From NCBI RefSeq assembly GCF_003018235.1, contig NZ_CP027437.1: DNA of 64,000 nt. One strand, 5' to 3'. Below, in pieces: positions 31,906-62,643 of the stretch. Every line of letters starts with the position of its first letter. Position 1 is the stretch's first letter. A model generated the notes under the pieces. That model saw only the letters and a list, made by a program, of their open reading frames with translations. It was not told where the DNA came from and ran no database searches. This DNA comes from Escherichia coli (GTDB taxonomy: Bacteria; Pseudomonadota; Gammaproteobacteria; Enterobacterales; Enterobacteriaceae). Made by a program: the position numbers and the translations under genes.

Positions 31906-34185
31906 ATGAAGAAAAAAATTGAATCCTACCAGGGAGCTGCCGGTGGTTGGGGTGCTGTTAAATCCGTAGCAAATGCAGTACGTAAGCAGATGGATATACG
32001 CCAGGATGTTATTGCCATGTTTGACATGAATAAGCCAGAGGGCTTTGACTGTCCGGGATGTGCATGGCCAGATCCTAAGCACAGTGCGTCATTCGACATT
32101 TGTGAAAACGGCGCAAAAGCAATCGCCTGGGAAGTCACGGATAAGCAGGTAAATGCCTCTTTCTTTGCTGAGAATACGGTTCAATCATTACTTACCTGGG
32201 GAGATCACGAGCTTGAGGCTGCGGGGCGTCTCACTCAGCCTTTGAAATATGATGCCGTCAGCGACTGTTACAAGCCATTAAGCTGGCAACAAGCTTTCGA
32301 CGAAATAGGCGCACGCCTTCAAAGCTATAGTGATCCCAATCAGGTTGAATTCTATACTTCGGGCCGCACTTCCAATGAAGCTGCCTTTCTTTATCAGCTT
32401 TTTGCCCGTGAATACGGGAGCAATAACTTTCCCGACTGTTCCAACATGTGCCATGAACCGACCAGTGTGGGTTTGGCAGCGAGTATCGGTGTAGGTAAAG
32501 GGACCGTGTTGCTGGAAGACTTTGAGAAATGCGATTTAGTCATTTGCATTGGGCATAACCCTGGTACAAACCACCCTCGCATGTTGACTTCGTTGCGCGC
32601 TTTAGTGAAACGGGGAGCGAAAATGATCGCCATCAATCCTCTACAGGAACGTGGCCTGGAGCGATTTACCGCACCGCAAAACCCGTTTGAAATGCTGACG
32701 AACTCTGAGACTCAGTTGGCCAGTGCCTACTACAACGTGCGCATTGGTGGTGATATGGCGTTGCTCAAGGGGATGATGCGCCTGTTAATTGAGCGCGATG
32801 ATGCTGCAAGCGCCGCAGGTCGGCCCTCATTGCTGGATGACGAATTTATTCAAACGCATACCGTCGGCTTTGACGAGCTACGCCGTGACGTTCTCAATTC
32901 CGAGTGGAAAGATATCGAGCGTATTTCTGGACTAAGTCAGACTCAAATCGCCGAACTGGCTGATGCATATGCCGCTGCCGAACGCACCATTATCTGTTAC
33001 GGAATGGGGATCACTCAGCACGAACATGGTACCCAGAATGTACAGCAACTGGTCAATCTGCTGTTGATGAAAGGTAACATTGGCAAGCCTGGTGCGGGTA
33101 TCTGCCCACTACGAGGTCACTCTAATGTACAGGGCGACCGAACCGTCGGTATCACCGAGAAACCGTCTGCAGAGTTTCTGGCTCGCCTGGGTGAGCGCTA
33201 TGGTTTCACCCCACCTCATGCACCTGGACATGCTGCAATTGCCAGCATGCAAGCAATATGTACGGGGCAGGCTCGAGCATTGATCTGCATGGGGGGCAAC
33301 TTTGCACTGGCAATGCCAGATCGGGAAGCGAGCGCTGTACCGTTAACGCAATTAGACCTGGCGGTACACGTTGCCACTAAGCTTAACCGCTCTCATCTGC
33401 TGACCGCACAGCATAGCTATATTCTGCCGGTTCTTGGGCGTAGCGAGATTGACATGCAAAAAAGCGGTGCGCAGGCGGTAACCGTTGAGGATTCAATGTC
33501 GATGATTCATGCCTCGCGTGGCGTGTTAAAACCCGCCGGTGTAATGCTGAAATCAGAGTGTGCAGTGGTCGCGGGAATCGCGCAGGCAGCACTACCCCAG
33601 AGCGTGGTAGCCTGGGAGTATCTGGTGGAAGATTATGATCGCATTCGCAATGACATTGAAGCTGTGCTGCCAGAGTTCGCCGACTATAACCAGCGCATCC
33701 GTCATCCTGGAGGTTTTCACCTGATAAACGCAGCTGCTGAAAGGCGCTGGAGGACGTCGTCAGGTAAGGCTAATTTCATTACCAGTAAAGGGCTGTTAGA
33801 AGATCCCTCTTCAGCGTTTAACAGTAAGCTAGTCATGGCGACAGTACGCAGTCACGATCAGTACAACACGACGATTTATGGTATGGATGATCGCTATCGA
33901 GGGGTATTCGGTCAACGAGATGTGGTCTTTATGAGTGCTAAACAAGCTAAAATTTGCCGTGTAAAAAACGGCGAAAGAGTTAATCTTATTGCGCTTACGC
34001 CAGACGGTAAGCGAAGCTCACGCCGCATGGATAGATTAAAAGTGGTCATTTACCCTATGGCTGACCGCTCACTGGTGACCTATTTTCCAGAATCGAATCA
34101 CATGCTAACACTTGATAACCACGATCCATTAAGTGGCATTCCTGGCTATAAAAGTATTCCGGTTGAATTAGAACCATCAAATTAA
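31906..34185 (+). CDS. ydeP: Molybdopterin oxidoreductase (formate-dehydrogenase-like), acid-resistance associated
   Basis: 759-aa ORF ([25 protein letters not shown]...). Confidence 0.95.
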
Positions 34186-34198
34186 TTCGCCTCCTCAT

Positions 34199-34233
34199 TT
34201 CTTCTGCTGTCATCCGCACAGCAGAAGAATTCC
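34199..34233. terminator. Strong stem-loop downstream of ydeP (putative terminator)
   Basis: TTCTTCTGCTG-(9 nt)-CAGCAGAAGAA, perfect 11-bp stem 14 nt after the ydeP stop; weak T-tract. Confidence 0.5.
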
Positions 34234-43163: not shown

Positions 43164-43187
43164 AACCGGGTAAATTTGCCCGGTTTT
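43164..43187 (+). terminator. Hairpin with T-tract between yddB and pqqL (terminator or attenuator)
   Basis: AACCGGG-(8 nt)-CCCGGTTTT ending ~15 nt before the pqqL start. Confidence 0.5.
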
Positions 43188-43202
43188 CGCATGGAGATAA
43201 TT

Positions 43203-45986
43203 ATGAGAAACCTCTGTTTCTTACTGACGTTAGTGGCAACTCTGTTGCTCCCCGGGCGACTGATTGCCGCCGCCTTACCGCAGGATGAAAAGTTAATTAC
43301 CGGGCAACTGGACAATGGCTTGCGATATATGATTTATCCGCATGCTCAACCAAAGGATCAGGTAAATTTATGGCTGCAAATTCATACGGGTTCATTGCAG
43401 GAAGGAGACAATGAGCGCGGCGTGGCTCATTTTGTAGAACATATGATGTTTAACGGCACAAAAACATGGCCGGGTAATAAAGTCATCGAAACATTTGAGT
43501 CGATGGGTCTGCGCTTTGGTCGCGATGTTAATGCCTATACCAGCTATGACGAAACGGTGTATCAGGTGAGTTTGCCGACTACGCAGAAACAAAATCTGCA
43601 ACAAGTGATGGCAATCTTCAGTGAATGGAGTAATGCCGCAACCTTTGAAAAACTCGAAGTAGACGCTGAACGCGGCGTAATTACTGAGGAATGGCGTGCC
43701 CATCAGGATGCGAAATGGCGCACCTCTCAGGCGCGCCGCCCTTTCCTGCTGGCTAATACCCGTAATTTAGACCGTGAACCTATCGGCCTGATGGATACTG
43801 TCGCTACGGTCACACCGGCACAATTGCGCCAATTTTATCAACGCTGGTATCAACCAAATAATATGACCTTTATCGTGGTCGGCGATATCGATAGTAAAGA
43901 AGCGCTGGCGCTGATTAAGGATAATTTAAGTAAGCTTCCGGCTAACAAAGCAGCTGAAAATCGCGTCTGGCCGACAAAAGCCGAAAACCACCTGCGCTTT
44001 AATATCATTAATGATAAAGAAAACCGGGTGAACGGCATCGCACTCTATTATCGCCTGCCAATGGTGCAAGTGAGCGATGAGCAAAGCTTTATCGAACAAG
44101 CTGAATGGAGCATGTTGGTTCAGCTGTTCAATCAGCGTCTGCAGGAACGCATACAGTCGGGCGAGTTGAAGACTATTTCTGGCGGCACTGCGCGCAGCGT
44201 TAAAATTGCACCCGATTATCAGTCGCTGTTTTTCCGTGTAAATGCACGAGACGATAATATGCAGGATGCTGCGAATGCATTAATGGCAGAGTTGGCAACT
44301 ATTGATCAGCATGGTTTTTCTGCTGAAGAACTCGATGATGTCAAATCTACCCGTCTCACCTGGCTGAAAAATGCGGTTGATCAGCAAGCTGAACGTGATT
44401 TACGTATGCTGACCAGTCGCCTGGCATCCAGCTCATTAAATAATACGCCGTTCTTGTCGCCGGAAGAGACATATCAACTTTCGAAACGTCTGTGGCAGCA
44501 AATTACCGTGCAAAGTCTGGCGGAAAAATGGCAGCAGTTAAGAAAGAACCAGGATGCATTTTGGGAGCAAATGGTAAACAATGAGGTTGCTGCCAAAAAC
44601 GCATTGTCTCCTGCGGCTATCCTGGCGCTGGAAAAAGAGTACGCCAACAAAAAGCTGGCGGCTTACATCTTCCCAGGCAGAAATTTATCGTTAACAGTAG
44701 ACGCTGACACACAGGCGGAAATTAGCAGCAAAGAAACGCTGGCTGAGAATCTGACATCATTAACACTTTCCAATGGTGCCAGGGTTATTCTGGCAAAATC
44801 CGCGGGTGAAGAGCAAAAACTACAAATTACTGCCGTATCTAATAAAGGCGATTTAAGTTTCCCTGCGCAGCAAAAATCACTTATCGCGCTGGCAAATAAA
44901 GCAGTAAGCGGAAGCGGCGTTGGTGAACTCTCCTCTTCCAGCCTGAAACGCTGGAGTGCGGAAAACTCGGTAACCATGAGCAGTAAAGTCAGTGGCATGA
45001 ATACATTGCTCTCTGTTAGCACGCGGACTAATAACCCTGAACCTGGTTTCCAGTTGATTAACCAGCGAATCACCCACAGCACGATTAACGATAATATTTG
45101 GGCATCGCTACAAAATGCTCAAATTCAGGCGTTGAAAACGCTCGACCAGCGTCCAGCGGAGAAATTCGCCCAGCAGATGTATGAGACGCGCTATGCTGAT
45201 GACCGCACGAAATTACTGCAAGAAAATCAGATTGCACAGTTTACTGCCGCAGATGCGCTGGCTGCCGATCGCCAGTTGTTTTCATCTCCAGCGGATATCA
45301 CGTTTGTCATTGTCGGTAATGTCGCAGAAGACAAACTCCTGCCGTTAATTACGCGTTACTTAGGATCAATCAAACACTCTGATTCGCCATTAGCCGCAGG
45401 TAAACCATTAACTCGCGCGACGGACAACGCATCGGTTGCTGTAAAAGAACAAAATGAACCTGTGGCACAGGTTTCACAGTGGAAGCGTTATGATTCCCGG
45501 ACACCTGTAAATCTGGAGACGCGTATGGCGCTCGATGCTTTTAACGTCGCACTGGCAAAAGATCTACGCGTTAATATTCGTGAACAGGCATCTGGAGCAT
45601 ACAGCGTTTCTTCTCGCCTCTCGGTTGATCCTCAGGCCAAAGATATCAGTCATTTGCTGGCTTTTACTTGTCAACCGGAACGACATGATGAACTGTTAAC
45701 GTTAGCGAATGAAGTGATGGTTAAACGTCTGGCTAAAGGGATCAGTGAGCAAGAACTGAACGAATACCAGCAAAACGTTCAGCGCAGCCTCGATATCCAA
45801 CAGCGTAGCGTTCAACAATTAGCGAACACCATTGTAAATAGTCTTATTCAATATGACGATCCTGCAGCATGGACTGAGCAGGAGCAATTGTTGAAACAAA
45901 TGACGGTAGAGAATGTTAACACTACCGTTAAACAATATCTTTCTCATCCGGTAAATACTTATACCGGAGTATTATTGCCAAAATAA
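43203..45986 (+). CDS. pqqL: M16-family zinc peptidase, secreted
   Basis: Track ORF 43176..45986; start 43203 preferred (GGAG SD 6 nt upstream; signal peptide MRNLCFLLTLVATLLLPGRLIAA); in-frame ATG 43191 is the alternative. HFVEH zinc motif. Confidence 0.9.
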   Translation: MRNLCFLLTLVATLLLPGRLIAAALPQDEKLITGQLDNGLRYMIYPHAQPKDQVNLWLQIHTGSLQEGDNERGVAHFVEHMMFNGTKTWPGNKVIETFESMGLRFGRDVNAYTSYDETVYQVSLPTTQKQNLQQVMAIFSEWSNAATFEKLEVDAERGVITEEWRAHQDAKWRTSQARRPFLLANTRNLDREPIGLMDTVATVTPAQLRQFYQRWYQPNNMTFIVVGDIDSKEALALIKDNLSKLPANKAAENRVWPTKAENHLRFNIINDKENRVNGIALYYRLPMVQVSDEQSFIEQAEWSMLVQLFNQRLQERIQSGELKTISGGTARSVKIAPDYQSLFFRVNARDDNMQDAANALMAELATIDQHGFSAEELDDVKSTRLTWLKNAVDQQAERDLRMLTSRLASSSLNNTPFLSPEETYQLSKRLWQQITVQSLAEKWQQLRKNQDAFWEQMVNNEVAAKNALSPAAILALEKEYANKKLAAYIFPGRNLSLTVDADTQAEISSKETLAENLTSLTLSNGARVILAKSAGEEQKLQITAVSNKGDLSFPAQQKSLIALANKAVSGSGVGELSSSSLKRWSAENSVTMSSKVSGMNTLLSVSTRTNNPEPGFQLINQRITHSTINDNIWASLQNAQIQALKTLDQRPAEKFAQQMYETRYADDRTKLLQENQIAQFTAADALAADRQLFSSPADITFVIVGNVAEDKLLPLITRYLGSIKHSDSPLAAGKPLTRATDNASVAVKEQNEPVAQVSQWKRYDSRTPVNLETRMALDAFNVALAKDLRVNIREQASGAYSVSSRLSVDPQAKDISHLLAFTCQPERHDELLTLANEVMVKRLAKGISEQELNEYQQNVQRSLDIQQRSVQQLANTIVNSLIQYDDPAAWTEQEQLLKQMTVENVNTTVKQYLSHPVNTYTGVLLPK

Positions 45987-45992
45987 TAACAG

Positions 45993-46023
45993 CCCCGTCA
46001 ACACATCGTTGGCGGGGATTTTA
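45993..46023 (+). terminator. Rho-independent terminator downstream of pqqL
   Basis: CCCCGTCAAC-(5 nt)-GTTGGCGGGG followed by ATTTTATC. Confidence 0.6.
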
Positions 46024-46248
46024 TCAATATTCGCTATTTTTATGTAATAATTTTATAAATGCGTTCAAAATAATAACCAAGTACTAATAGTGATATTTTA
46101 AGGTCTGATTTTTACGTGATAATTCAGGAGGCGTAGAAAGTGCATAAAAATAACAGCATAAAACACCTTGCCACCACCCAAGAATTCAATAATGTATTGA
46201 TTTTCAATGATAAAATATTATTCGCATAATATCTCACGATAAATAACA

Positions 46249-46268
46249 TTAGGATTTTGTTATTTAAA
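46249..46268 (+). promoter_or_regulatory. GAD box (GadE/GadX-dependent activation site) upstream of gadB
   Basis: Exact 20-mer TTAGGATTTTGTTATTTAAA about 80 nt upstream of the gadB start. Confidence 0.85.
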
Positions 46269-46347
46269 CACGAGTCCTTTGCACTTGCTTACTTTATCGA
46301 TAAATCCTACTTTTTTAATGCGATCCAATCATTTTAAGGAGTTTAAA

Positions 46348-47748
46348 ATGGATAAGAAGCAAGTAACGGATTTAAGGTCGGAACTACTCGATTCACGTTT
46401 TGGTGCGAAGTCTATTTCCACTATCGCAGAATCAAAACGATTTCCGCTGCACGAAATGCGCGATGATGTCGCATTCCAGATTATCAATGACGAATTATAT
46501 CTTGATGGCAACGCTCGTCAGAACCTGGCCACTTTCTGCCAGACCTGGGACGACGAAAATGTCCACAAGTTGATGGATTTATCCATTAACAAAAACTGGA
46601 TCGACAAAGAAGAATATCCGCAATCCGCAGCCATCGACCTGCGTTGCGTAAACATGGTTGCCGATCTGTGGCATGCGCCTGCGCCGAAAAATGGTCAGGC
46701 CGTTGGCACCAACACCATTGGTTCTTCCGAGGCCTGTATGCTCGGCGGGATGGCGATGAAATGGCGTTGGCGCAAGCGTATGGAAGCTGCAGGCAAACCA
46801 ACGGATAAACCAAACCTGGTGTGCGGTCCGGTGCAAATCTGCTGGCATAAATTCGCCCGCTACTGGGATGTGGAGCTGCGTGAGATCCCTATGCGCCCCG
46901 GTCAGTTGTTTATGGACCCGAAACGCATGATTGAAGCCTGCGACGAAAACACCATCGGCGTGGTGCCGACTTTCGGCGTGACCTACACCGGTAACTATGA
47001 GTTCCCGCAACCGCTGCACGATGCGCTGGATAAATTCCAGGCCGACACCGGTATCGACATCGACATGCACATCGACGCCGCCAGCGGTGGCTTCCTGGCA
47101 CCGTTCGTCGCCCCGGATATCGTCTGGGACTTCCGCCTGCCGCGTGTGAAATCGATCAGTGCTTCAGGCCATAAATTCGGTCTGGCTCCGCTGGGCTGCG
47201 GCTGGGTTATCTGGCGTGATGAAGAAGCGCTGCCGCAGGAACTGGTGTTCAACGTTGACTATCTCGGTGGTCAGATTGGGACTTTCGCCATCAACTTCTC
47301 CCGCCCGGCGGGTCAGGTGATTGCACAGTACTATGAATTCCTGCGCCTCGGTCGTGAAGGCTATACCAAAGTACAGAACGCCTCTTACCAGGTTGCCGCT
47401 TATCTGGCGGATGAAATCGCCAAACTGGGGCCGTATGAGTTCATCTGTACCGGTCGCCCGGACGAAGGCATCCCGGCGGTTTGCTTCAAACTGAAAGATG
47501 GTGAAGATCCGGGATACACCCTGTACGACCTCTCTGAACGTCTGCGTCTGCGCGGCTGGCAGGTTCCGGCCTTCACTCTCGGCGGTGAAGCCACCGACAT
47601 CGTGGTGATGCGCATTATGTGTCGTCGCGGCTTCGAAATGGACTTTGCTGAACTGTTGCTGGAAGACTACAAAGCCTCCCTGAAATATCTCAGCGATCAC
47701 CCGAAACTGCAGGGTATTGCCCAGCAGAACAGCTTTAAACATACCTGA
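46348..47748 (+). CDS. gadB: Glutamate decarboxylase beta (PLP-dependent)
   Basis: 466 aa from ATG 46348 ([23 protein letters not shown]...); called gadB rather than gadA because gadC follows. Confidence 0.95.
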
Positions 47749-47768
47749 TAACGTTTAACGGTAACGGT

Positions 47769-47858
47769 GTCCCGAAACACACCCGTTTCGGGACAATTTC
47801 CAAAGTCTGTTCACTGGCATTAGCAACGGAAAATATTGTTCTGAATACGCTTCAGAAC
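47769..47858 (+). other. Two perfect hairpins in the gadB-gadC intergenic region
   Basis: GTCCCGAAAC-acaccc-GTTTCGGGAC (47769-47794) and GTTCTGAA-tacgc-TTCAGAAC (47838-47858); no strong T-tracts. Confidence 0.45.
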
Positions 47859-47903
47859 AAAACAGGTTCGGTTCCGACAGGAATACCGTTTTAGGGGGAT
47901 AAT

Positions 47904-49439
47904 ATGGCTACATCAGTACAGACAGGTAAAGCTAAGCAGCTCACATTACTCGGATTTTTTGCCATAACGGCATCGATGGTAATGGCTGTTTATGAATACC
48001 CTACCTTCGCAACATCGGGCTTTTCATTAGTCTTCTTCCTGCTATTAGGCGGGATTTTATGGTTTATTCCCGTGGGACTTTGTGCTGCGGAAATGGCCAC
48101 CGTCGACGGCTGGGAAGAAGGTGGTGTCTTCGCCTGGGTATCAAATACTCTGGGGCCGAGATGGGGATTTGCAGCGATCTCATTTGGCTATCTGCAAATC
48201 GCCATTGGTTTTATTCCGATGCTCTATTTCGTGTTAGGGGCACTCTCCTACATCCTGAAATGGCCAGCGCTGAATGAAGACCCCATTACCAAAACTATTG
48301 CAGCACTCATCATTCTTTGGGCGCTGGCATTAACGCAGTTTGGTGGCACGAAATACACGGCGCGAATTGCTAAAGTTGGCTTCTTCGCCGGTATCCTGTT
48401 ACCTGCATTTATTTTGATCGCATTAGCGGCTATTTATTTGCACTCCGGTGCCCCCGTTGCTATCGAAATTGATTCGAAGACCTTCTTCCCTGACTTCTCT
48501 AAAGTGGGCACCCTGGTTGTATTTGTTGCCTTCATTTTGAGTTATATGGGGGTAGAAGCATCTGCAACCCACGTCAATGAAATGAGCAACCCAGGGCGCG
48601 ACTATCCACTGGCTATGTTACTGCTGATGGTGGCGGCAATCTGCTTAAGCTCTGTTGGCGGTTTGTCTATTGCGATGGTCATTCCGGGTAATGAAATCAA
48701 CCTCTCCGCAGGTGTAATGCAAACCTTTACCGTTCTGATGTCCCATGTGGCACCGGAAATTGAGTGGACGGTTCGCGTGATCTCCGCACTGCTGTTACTG
48801 GGTGTTCTGGCGGAAATCGCCTCCTGGATTGTTGGTCCTTCTCGCGGGATGTATGTCACAGCGCAGAAAAACCTGCTGCCAGCGGCATTCGCTAAAATGA
48901 ACAAAAATGGCGTACCGGTAACGCTGGTCATTTCGCAGCTGGTGATTACTTCTATCGCGTTGATCATCCTCACCAATACCGGTGGCGGTAACAACATGTC
49001 CTTCCTGATCGCACTGGCGCTGACGGTGGTGATTTATCTGTGTGCTTATTTCATGCTGTTTATTGGCTACATTGTGTTGGTTCTTAAACATCCTGACTTA
49101 AAACGCACATTTAATATCCCTGGTGGTAAAGGGGTGAAACTGGTCGTGGCTGTTGTCGGTCTGCTGACTTCAATTATGGCGTTTATTGTTTCCTTCCTGC
49201 CGCCGGATAACATCCAGGGTGACTCTACCGATATGTATGTTGAATTACTGTTCGTGAGTTTCCTGGTGGTACTTGCCCTGCCCTTTATTCTCTATGCTGT
49301 TCATGATCGTAAAGGCAAAGCGAATACCGGCGTCACTCTGGAGCCAATCAACAGTAAGAACGCACCAAAAGGTCACTTCTTCCTGCACCCGCGTGCACGT
49401 TCACCACACTATATTGTGATGAATGACAAGAAACACTAA
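47904..49439 (+). CDS. gadC: Glutamate:GABA antiporter (APC family)
   Basis: 511-aa polytopic ORF directly downstream of gadB. Confidence 0.95.
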
Positions 49440-49464
49440 CCATGTCTGAATGGTTATAAGACAA

Positions 49465-49492
49465 GGGAACGATAATTCATCGCTCCCTTTTT
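49465..49492 (+). terminator. Rho-independent terminator downstream of gadC
   Basis: GGGAACGAT-aattc-ATCGCTCCC (one mismatch) followed by TTTTT. Confidence 0.7.
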
Positions 49493-49569
49493 CGTGCTTG
49501 CTGTCGTATTGACTTAACCGGGATAAGTACGAGAATGAGCGCACATCTGTTTACCGGAAACCAGCACAT

Positions 49570-50889
49570 ATGGATATCTGCTCCCGAAACGAGAAATTAG
49601 CGATTAGAAGACCAGCGATACTGGTTGCACTGGCACTTTTACTGTGTAGTTGTAAAAGCACGCCTCCAGAGTCCATGGTGACACCACCAGCGGGTTCAAA
49701 GCCACCAGCCACGACGCAACAATCGTCACAACCGATGCGTGGCATCTGGCTGGCCACGGTGTCTCGCCTCGACTGGCCACCGGTTTCCTCGATTAACATT
49801 AGTAACCCCACCAGCCGGGCCCGTGTACAACAACAGGCGATGATTGACAAACTGGATCATCTGCAACGTCTCGGCATAAACACGGTCTTTTTCCAGGTCA
49901 AGCCGGACGGTACCGCCCTGTGGCCATCAAAAATTTTGCCGTGGTCCGATCTTATGACCGGAAAGATTGGTGAAAATCCAGGTTACGATCCGCTGCAATT
50001 TATGCTCGACGAAGCCCACAAGCGTGGGATGAAAGTACACGCCTGGTTTAACCCCTATCGCGTATCGGTTAATACGAAGCCCGGTACTATCAGGGAACTG
50101 AATAGCACTCTGGCTCAACAACCAGCGAGCGTCTATGTGCAACACCGCGACTGGATCAGAACGTCCGGCGATCGCTTTGTCCTCGACCCGGGCATCCCTG
50201 AAGTTCAGGACTGGATCACATCAATAGTCGCGGAAGTGGTTTCCCGCTATCCGGTAGATGGCGTGCAGTTTGACGACTATTTCTATACTGAGTCACCGGG
50301 TTCACGGCTAAATGATAACGAAACGTACCGCAAATACGGAGGCGCATTTGCGTCAAAAGCAGACTGGCGGCGCAACAATACTCAGCAGTTAATTGCGAAG
50401 GTATCGCACACCATTAAAAGCATTAAGCCGGAAGTCGAATTTGGCGTTAGCCCGGCAGGCGTGTGGCGTAACCGATCACACGATCCGCTCGGTTCCGATA
50501 CCCGAGGCGCGGCAGCCTATGACGAATCCTACGCTGACACCCGTCGATGGGTGGAACAAGGATTGCTGGATTACATTGCTCCCCAAATTTACTGGCCGTT
50601 CTCACGGAGTGCCGCACGTTATGACGTTTTGGCAAAATGGTGGGCAGATGTCGTTAAACCGACCAGGACCCGCCTGTATATCGGTATCGCCTTCTATAAA
50701 GTGGGTGAACCTTCAAAGATAGAGCCAGACTGGATGATTAACGGCGGCGTACCGGAACTGAAAAAACAGCTCGATCTTAACGATGCCGTGCCAGAAATTA
50801 GCGGCACAATCTTGTTCCGTGAGGACTATCTGAATAAGCCACAGACTCAACAAGCGGTCAGCTATCTGCAAAGTCGTTGGGGCAGTTAA
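49570..50889 (+). CDS. yddW: Outer-membrane lipoprotein, glycoside-hydrolase-like (GH10-type)
   Basis: 439-aa ORF with lipoprotein signal (LALLLCSC); synteny between gadC and dosC. Confidence 0.85.
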   Translation: MDICSRNEKLAIRRPAILVALALLLCSCKSTPPESMVTPPAGSKPPATTQQSSQPMRGIWLATVSRLDWPPVSSINISNPTSRARVQQQAMIDKLDHLQRLGINTVFFQVKPDGTALWPSKILPWSDLMTGKIGENPGYDPLQFMLDEAHKRGMKVHAWFNPYRVSVNTKPGTIRELNSTLAQQPASVYVQHRDWIRTSGDRFVLDPGIPEVQDWITSIVAEVVSRYPVDGVQFDDYFYTESPGSRLNDNETYRKYGGAFASKADWRRNNTQQLIAKVSHTIKSIKPEVEFGVSPAGVWRNRSHDPLGSDTRGAAAYDESYADTRRWVEQGLLDYIAPQIYWPFSRSAARYDVLAKWWADVVKPTRTRLYIGIAFYKVGEPSKIEPDWMINGGVPELKKQLDLNDAVPEISGTILFREDYLNKPQTQQAVSYLQSRWGS

Positions 50890-62578: not shown

Positions 62579-62609
62579 TTCATAACCATCAGTCCTCAAT
62601 GACGATTAA

Positions 62610-62643
62610 ACACCATTGCCTGCGCAATGGTGTTTTTGTTTTT
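62610..62643 (+). terminator. Rho-independent terminator downstream of sra
   Basis: ACACCATTG-cctgcg-CAATGGTGT followed by TTTTTGTTTTT. Confidence 0.85.

Follow-up and report, generated by a model that had tools for sequence, protein, structure and literature searches.

Between gadB, which encodes glutamate decarboxylase, and gadC, which encodes the glutamate/gamma-aminobutyric acid (GABA) antiporter, the 64,000-nucleotide stretch of Escherichia coli DNA analysed here (contig NZ_CP027437.1 of RefSeq assembly GCF_003018235.1; below, the window) carries two perfect hairpins, named HP1 and HP2 in the order of transcription. The two genes are co-transcribed, according to statements in PMC6604978 and PMC11210196. 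We hold with moderate confidence that HP1 is an operon-internal determinant of transcript 3' ends: a leaky terminator and/or a barrier to 3'-exonucleases that gives rise to a stable gadB-only mRNA. Three lines of evidence bear on this: a published RNA 3' end that maps to the foot of HP1, compensatory changes in its stem among Escherichia, and the recurrence of strong hairpins at the same place in the gadBC operons of other bacteria. Both hairpins are real, and the element is probably functional, representing an ordinary kind of operon-internal control.

The hairpins and the mapped 3' end

Both hairpins lie within the 155-nt spacer that separates the two genes, where the first-pass annotation of this DNA, made from the letters alone, had placed them. 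That annotation gave them perfect stems of 10 and 8 bp; the stems are indeed present and perfect, but they are longer, at 11 and 10 bp (Table 1). HP1 begins 20 nt past the gadB stop codon (19 nt intervening) and in strain K-12 has 12 pairs around a 4-nt loop. Its stem is stable and G+C-rich (11-12 bp with 6-7 G-C pairs), with a folding energy of -18.5 kcal/mol (z -3.8) that none of 200 shuffles equalled. HP2 ends 43 nt before the ATG of gadC and folds at -10.9 kcal/mol (z -6.5; again 0 of 200 shuffles as stable); with three G-C pairs and this energy it answers only weakly to the description of a stable, G+C-rich stem. For the spacer in its entirety the folding energy is -48.3 kcal/mol (z -3.8). 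Perfect hairpins with a stem of at least 10 bp and a loop of 3-8 nt number four in the window, compared with a mean of 0.43 and a maximum of 2 in dinucleotide shuffles, and two of the four sit in this spacer. Elsewhere in the window, a 12-bp perfect hairpin at 34199-34229 (TTCTTCTGCTGT-CATCCGC-ACAGCAGAAGAA, no U-tract) starts 14 nt past the stop codon of a 759-aa open reading frame (ORF; 31906-34185) that, from the K-12 map, is probably ydeP, another acid-resistance gene; a further 12-bp perfect hairpin at 62608-62635 (AAACACCATTGC-CTGC-GCAATGGTGTTT), followed by TTGTTTTTAT, resembles a canonical intrinsic terminator.

On the + strand neither hairpin is followed by a U-tract (tails AATTTCCA for HP1 and AACAGGTT for HP2) and the terminator scan calls neither of them, in keeping with the earlier remark that strong T-tracts are lacking. 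Measured against the usual requirement of about five or more U in the 8 nt after the stem, both fall short: the tail of HP1 (AAUUUCCA) has three U only, and that of HP2 (AACAGGUU) also fails. On the - strand HP2 is followed by the terminator-like TATTTTCC, and there the scan does call it.

A published Term-seq map of MG1655 grown in minimal glucose medium to an optical density (OD) of 0.4 (Adams et al. 2021, PMC7815308, Supplementary file 1, sheet M63 0.4) places a 3' end at K-12 position 1570594 (- strand), classed as 'orphan', with 33,816.8 reads on average and ...GTCCCGAAACGAACCCGTTTCGGGACAATT[T]CCAAAG as its flanking sequence. Converted through the alignment of K-12 with the window, this position is the last U of AAUUU, 4 nt past the final pair of HP1 and 51 nt past the gadB stop. 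The other 3' end of the operon in the same sheet, at K-12 1568900 (average count 70,553), corresponds to window position 49493, within the U-tract of the terminator that follows gadC. The count at HP1 is thus about half of that at the operon terminator and of the same order (33,817 vs 70,553), and a substantial fraction of the stable 3' ends derived from gadBC lies at HP1 in the M63 condition. The Term-seq tables (PMC7815308) list no 3' ends at HP2, inside gadC or on the opposite strand, so that a mapped end immediately 3' of the stem, one of the features expected of an exonuclease barrier, is found for HP1 and not for HP2. The first-pass annotation had suggested that the two hairpins might set differential stability or processing within the gadBC transcript, and had named 3'-end mapping across the junction as a check. 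The published map provides such a check for one condition, with an end at HP1 and none at HP2; the suggestion therefore gains ground in part, as regards 3'-end formation at HP1 by termination or processing, through the end at 47799, the covariation and the cross-species recurrence; it does not carry over to HP2, which has no listed end, and differential stability as such stays a conjecture.

Conservation of the spacer within and beyond Escherichia

Variation within the genus was followed in K-12, eight further E. coli genomes, five species-level Escherichia representatives and 14 metagenome contigs, which together gave 11 distinct spacers; the metagenome scan, run with the invariant block described below, found 14 loci with one new variant only and no added covariation. 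Among E. coli strains the loop of HP1 varies (ACACCC, GAACCC, GAAGCC) around an intact core stem, and that of HP2 reads TACGC or TACGT, also with the stem intact. Over the 11 variants, 4 of the 12 pairs of HP1 show compensatory changes (U-A to C-G and A-U to G-C), three of these double changes occurring in E. albertii and one in strain SCPM-O-B-8794. Further variants place G-U or U-G in the stem of HP1; these can pair only as + strand RNA, and the opposite strand, or a DNA palindrome, would show them as A.C mismatches. In HP2 one pair of ten is compensatory (U-A to C-G), with U-G (one lineage) and C.A (three lineages) as intermediates. Counted over four modelled helices, on a structure specified by the analyst, double-change pairs amount to 5, against 1.6 +/- 1.0 in shuffles (1 of 500 reaching 5) and 0-1 in slid controls.

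The spacer of the window is 0.83 identical to that of E. albertii and 0.92-0.93 identical to those of two other Escherichia species, whereas identity at third codon positions of gadC runs from 0.67 (E. albertii) to 0.76; purifying selection thus acts on the spacer. Conservation is highest not in the hairpins but in a 24-nt block between them, which is the same in every variant; this holds even for E. albertii, with its identity of only 67% at gadC third positions. Within the operon no pairing partner for the block was found (best duplex -25.7 kcal/mol, against a mean of -24.7 for a null of shuffled blocks), and the sample of Hfq CLASH entries retrieved for gadB and gadC, all of them intragenic, include no chimeras of small RNAs (sRNAs) at the spacer. 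A weak sigma-70-like promoter match (TTCACT-18 nt-TATTGT, 47810-47839; 8 of 12 positions, found by eye and not called by the promoter scan) overlaps the block and the start of HP2. The possible third hairpin near gadC is seen in the minimum-free-energy (MFE) folds of all Escherichia variants; no covariation is seen in it among them, and 6 of its 8 pairs never vary.

The spacer occurs at a median of one place per genome (blastn, E<=10, 5,407 genomes). Five of 5,408 spacer matches in the E. coli genome collection are plasmid-borne and not chromosomal. In E. coli KC-Dl-1 (locus L087, 2400-2600) a deletion joins the 3' part of gadB to the HP2 region, with loss of HP1; gadB of this strain is annotated as a frameshifted pseudogene and lies 9 nt upstream of an intact gadC.

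Beyond Escherichia, a scan for GadC with one genome per species gave 80 loci, 66 of them with gadB directly upstream of gadC, and hairpins were surveyed in the 54 non-Escherichia proteobacterial gadB-gadC spacers of at least 40 nt. Of these 54, 47 contain a hairpin at or below -14 kcal/mol. The median of the best hairpin is -19.2 kcal/mol, compared with -7.4 for shuffles of the same spacers and -10.6 for pieces of gadB coding sequence of equal length; 41 spacers have z <= -2, and the distance from the gadB stop to the start of the hairpin is at most 45 nt in 39. The hairpin sequences are unrelated between bacterial groups. In a group of eight loci, mainly from Providencia and Proteus, 9 of the 13 consensus pairs are compensatory. 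At least five T in the 8-nt tail are found in only 6 of the 47 hairpins, including those of Yersinia rohdei, Serratia and the proteobacterial loci L056 and L058, whose hairpins, judged by sequence, look like canonical terminators; the remaining tails show only a mild excess of T (0.40-0.53 at positions 2-5; background 0.29). Few full U-tracts together with T-enriched tails would fit deliberately leaky ends. Eight gadBC operons have spacers below 40 nt, too short for the hairpin scan, so that a hairpin after gadB is common and not obligatory. Five Providencia-like spacers (L026, L028, L030, L031, L035) hold a second small hairpin after the main one, with a conserved ATCAGT/ACTGAT stem and variable loops; the two-hairpin layout is thus not unique to E. 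coli, although the sequences are unrelated. Taken together, the covariation and the cross-species recurrence argue, from sequence comparison, that HP1 is under selection.

The Escherichia gadBC operon itself looks chimeric (46348-49439, compared with loci L007-L049). Escherichia GadC is 70-79% identical to its counterparts in other Proteobacteria, the same range as among those others; Escherichia GadB is 56-60% identical to the GadBs of the same operons, which are 76-95% identical among themselves. One paper gives 73% identity between the GadBs of Brucella microti and E. coli, which places closer GadB relatives outside the sample.

Proposed mechanism and rival explanations

In the mechanism that we propose, RNA polymerase would start at the gadB promoter and some transcripts would end just past HP1, at 47799, to give a gadB-only mRNA with its 3' end protected by the 11-12 bp stem; the remaining transcripts would cross the spacer, run on past gadC as far as the U-tract terminator at about 49493, and supply gadC. 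Given the known footprint of the ribosome, a start 20 nt past the stop codon should keep a terminating ribosome from blocking the folding of HP1. Two routes could lead to the end at HP1: weak intrinsic termination at the three-U tail, or 3'-to-5' exonucleases that set out from an endonuclease cut or a termination site further downstream and trim the RNA as far as the stem. The former is favoured by the canonical U-tracts that some relatives have at the equivalent hairpin, the latter by the missing U-tract and the distance of only 4 nt between stem and end; the latter is also the pattern that Dar & Sorek 2018 (PMC6061677) describe for Rho-terminated transcripts. By either route the message for the decarboxylase would be uncoupled from that for the antiporter and would be expected to exceed it. 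We infer a gadB message that is more abundant or longer-lived than the gadC message, with an effect on the GadB:GadC ratio. For HP2 several roles are conceivable: it may add a further barrier, shield the 5' end of a processed gadC message, contribute to a fold controlling the gadC ribosome-binding site (RBS), or terminate transcription on the opposite strand.

Several observations weigh against this account. The 3' end at HP1 comes from one condition of one study and is absent from the sheets for LB cultures at OD 0.4 and 2.0; gadBC may simply be too weakly expressed there. Term-seq does not distinguish termination from processing. No 3' end is mapped at HP2, and in E. albertii this hairpin is eroded, the lower half of its stem being broken (5 bp, 2 mismatches, 3 bp). 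The paralogue gadA has a strong hairpin 18 nt past its stop and yet no listed Term-seq 3' end; a hairpin alone is therefore no guarantee of a detectable end, which tempers any generalisation. Few lineages supply the compensatory changes (for HP1, in essence two independent ones), so that the statistics are thin and the covariation is supportive and not conclusive for HP1, and weak for HP2. A literature search that did not cover the older gad papers found no half-life, Northern or gadB-versus-gadC abundance data. Nor did a full-text search turn up any account of these hairpins; it did not extend to the classical papers on gad transcription, which may well mention a stem-loop or a gadB-length transcript. 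The bicyclomycin table (LB cultures) has no gadBC entries, and the SMRT-Cappable-seq tables have no entry for gadB or gadC. Rho-dependent termination inside gadC was considered as a further candidate and set aside, with no bicyclomycin or 3'-end entries in K-12 1569xxx-15704xx (in LB, where the operon is poorly expressed).

Could the end at HP1 be without consequence for expression? HP1 might be an incidental decay intermediate, or the leftover terminator of a once-monocistronic gene of the gadA/B type that became joined to gadC. We consider this unlikely, even though stable stems commonly accumulate 3' ends, gadA has a comparable hairpin at the same offset, and the operon has the chimeric look set out above (GadB 56-60% and GadC 70-79% identical to those of other operons). 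A leftover would decay, yet the stems are kept by compensatory changes and the spacer evolves more slowly than synonymous sites. Unrelated hairpins are moreover kept at the same place in many gadBC operons that are not chimeric, with 9 of 13 pairs covarying in one group, and the 3'-end count at HP1 is about half that of the operon's terminator. The chances are slimmer still that the structured spacer, with the tail of HP1, HP2, the third hairpin and the 24-nt block, mainly sets access to the gadC RBS, by pairing with the Shine-Dalgarno (SD) sequence or by binding a protein or sRNA, the end at HP1 being secondary. In the MFE folds of K-12 and three other variants the AUUUCC just after HP1 (47796-47801) pairs with the GGGGGA of the SD; this pairing shows no covariation, and E69 variants break two of its pairs. 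The conservation of the spacer, and above all of the 24-nt block, goes beyond the needs of the hairpins alone, which would suit a translational role, although no partner within the operon rises above the null, the Hfq CLASH passages retrieved hold no spacer sRNA chimeras, and no published evidence was found. GGA motifs lie near the gadC SD, and CsrA represses the translation of gadA and gadB at such motifs (PMC11210196); the CsrA binding reported there is to the gadB 5' leader, and the gadB-gadC spacer falls outside that study.

Readings that place the function in the DNA or on the other strand fare worse. HP2 is a perfect 10-5-10 palindrome, and the palindromes might serve a dimeric regulator as operators or lie on either side of an internal gadC promoter at 47810-47839, where the sigma-70-like match overlaps the invariant block and the start of HP2. 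This strikes us as very improbable: the promoter scan is silent on the match, promoter-like sites in the region occur at chance (6 found, 6.0 expected), the G-U variants of HP1 break the DNA symmetry and keep the RNA pairing, loops and spacings vary, and the searched literature holds no internal gadC promoter or regulator site. As a candidate in its own right the internal promoter was rejected, since it amounts to an 8/12 hexamer match and the sole literature match for 'gadCp' is the name of a primer for the gadBC promoter. Least credible is a function of HP2 on the - strand, where, followed by UAUUUUCC, it could end a transcript antisense to the 5' end of gadC. The terminator scan does call it on that strand, and its C.A variants (three lineages) would be U-G pairs there; yet another lineage has the opposite variant, U-G on the + strand, none of the three Term-seq conditions has a 3' end on that strand near K-12 15705xx, and evidence for a promoter was not found. 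A bolder extension of the 3'-end determinant, which we regard as a long shot, would make the whole spacer (HP1, the 24-nt block, HP2 and the SD-proximal hairpin) a dedicated post-transcriptional switch, in which a putative ligand, be it protein, sRNA or a physical cue like pH, would set the amount of GadC per GadB; it would have been reinvented with unrelated sequences across the Proteobacteria and kept in Escherichia after replacement of the decarboxylase gene.

GadB, a soluble hexamer, is abundant; GadC, a membrane antiporter, is required at lower levels and carries a cost when over-produced. If HP1 acts as a 3'-end determinant, it would be a simple device that sets the GadB:GadC ratio in the main extreme-acid resistance system of E. 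coli, and would explain an 'orphan' 3' end in a published atlas. It would also warn against using gadB and gadC read-outs interchangeably to report on the operon, and would offer a defined, tunable element to engineers of GABA-producing strains; the practical value is modest but real. The unrelated hairpins that recur at the same place in many gadBC operons make a clean example of structure conserved without sequence. The more curious by-products are the invariant 24-nt block, a concrete small puzzle, and the apparent mosaic origin of the operon.

The locus and comparison with known elements

In the window, pqqL, gadB, gadC and digH all lie on the + strand, inverted relative to K-12 (Table 1). 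Gene identities rest on NCBIfam equivalog models and on the RefSeq annotation of near-identical E. coli records and of MG1655. The gadB stop codon is TGA (47746-47748), with an in-frame TAA next. De Biase et al. are said to have described the co-transcription of gadB and gadC in 1999. The spacer has a frame open from 47751 to a TAG at 47892-47894, but without an ATG, GTG or TTG start, and no + strand spacer ORFs of at least 20 aa are listed. A scan of 46000-50000 with Rfam 15 (E<=10) gave no match in the spacer and, elsewhere, two chance-level matches to eukaryotic families. The stem of the gadC terminator (49465-49487) has an A.C mismatch in this strain (GGGAACGAT/ATCGCTCCC), where that of K-12 is perfect (GGGAGCGAT).

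Table 1. Features of the gadBC region, in window coordinates
Feature	Position	Strand	Remarks
pqqL	43176-45986	+	Part of the pqqL-gadB-gadC-digH segment
gadB (glutamate decarboxylase), coding sequence	46348-47748	+	NCBIfam TIGR01788, E 1.9e-208; RefSeq annotation
gadB-gadC intergenic spacer, 155 nt	47749-47903	+	
HP1, TGTCCCGAAAC-ACACCC-GTTTCGGGACA	47768-47795	+	Arms 47768-47778 and 47785-47795; 11 perfect pairs, 6-nt loop; proposed 3'-end determinant of a gadB-only transcript
Mapped RNA 3' end (K-12 1570594, - there)	47799	+	Term-seq; coordinate converted via the K-12/window alignment
24-nt block, AAGTCTGTTCACTGGCATTAGCAA	47803-47826	+	Between the hairpins; invariant in 11/11 Escherichia spacer variants
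HP2, TTGTTCTGAA-TACGC-TTCAGAACAA	47836-47860	+	Arms 47836-47845 and 47851-47860; 10 perfect pairs, 5-nt loop; AU-rich
Possible small third hairpin, GGTTCC-GACA-GGA..ACC	47869-47888	+	Just upstream of the gadC RBS; low confidence
gadC SD GGGGGA and ATG start (47904)	47894-47906	+	Read from the sequence
gadC (glutamate/GABA antiporter), coding sequence	47904-49439	+	NCBIfam TIGR00910, 1024.9 bits; RefSeq annotation
Operon-end terminator after gadC	49465-49493	+	9-bp stem, one A.C mismatch here, then TTTTT
digH	49570-50889	+	

Intercistronic stem-loops that stabilise mRNA are known from malE-malF (repetitive extragenic palindromic, REP, hairpins of E. coli), from pufBA of Rhodobacter capsulatus and from papB-papA. 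As in these systems, HP1 is a stable stem just downstream of the more highly needed gene, the transcript of the upstream gene ends there, and the upstream message is likewise expected to outnumber the downstream one. HP1 shares with such stabilising barriers its position, its stability, a mapped 3' end and structural conservation. Unlike the REP hairpins of malE-malF, HP1 is a unique sequence present in a single copy per genome. An origin from REP or bacterial interspersed mosaic elements (BIME), from enterobacterial repetitive intergenic consensus (ERIC) sequences or from another dispersed repeat was rejected on this count; pattern searches of the window, too, find only the elements themselves.

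Leaky intrinsic terminators and attenuators tune the stoichiometry of operons, examples being the rplL-rpoB attenuator and the partial terminators revealed by end-mapping methods. HP1 resembles them in lying between two cistrons, in partial 3'-end formation and in read-through to a strong terminal terminator, and a few related gadBC operons (Yersinia rohdei, Serratia, L056, L058) have a full U-tract at the equivalent hairpin. It differs in that its own tail lacks the U-tract and in that its end lies 4 nt, not about 7-9 nt, past the stem. Lacking the U-tract, HP1 is not filed as a canonical intrinsic terminator, though its stem would qualify; its end in vivo, 4 nt past the stem, is compatible with trimming or with atypical termination. 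An Hfq-dependent sRNA derived from a 3' untranslated region was rejected, as there is no U-tail and the sample of CLASH chimeras retrieved lies in the coding regions of gadB and gadC.

Within E. coli a parallel is seen at gadA (locus L104, 1531-1683, - strand; hairpin at about 3666115-3666160 in K-12), where a 15-bp perfect hairpin without a U-tract, AACCGAAUGCCCAGC...GCUGGGCAUUCGGUU, starts 18 nt past the stop codon and ahead of gadX. The placement is similar to that of HP1; the sequence is unrelated, and the homology of gadA with gadB ends 4 nt past the stop codon. The Term-seq tables give no 3' end for this hairpin. According to Tramonti et al. in 2002, the gene downstream of gadA is reportedly co-transcribed with it in part. 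Other stem-loops are described that halt PNPase and RNase II and so set the stable 3' ends of transcripts which were processed or terminated by Rho (Dar & Sorek 2018, PMC6061677); HP1 is like those ends in being strong, in having no U-tract and in its mapped end a few nt (here 4) past the stem. HP1 is thus a reasonably well-supported case of a familiar class, of which the intercistronic stabilising stem-loop is the closest kind.

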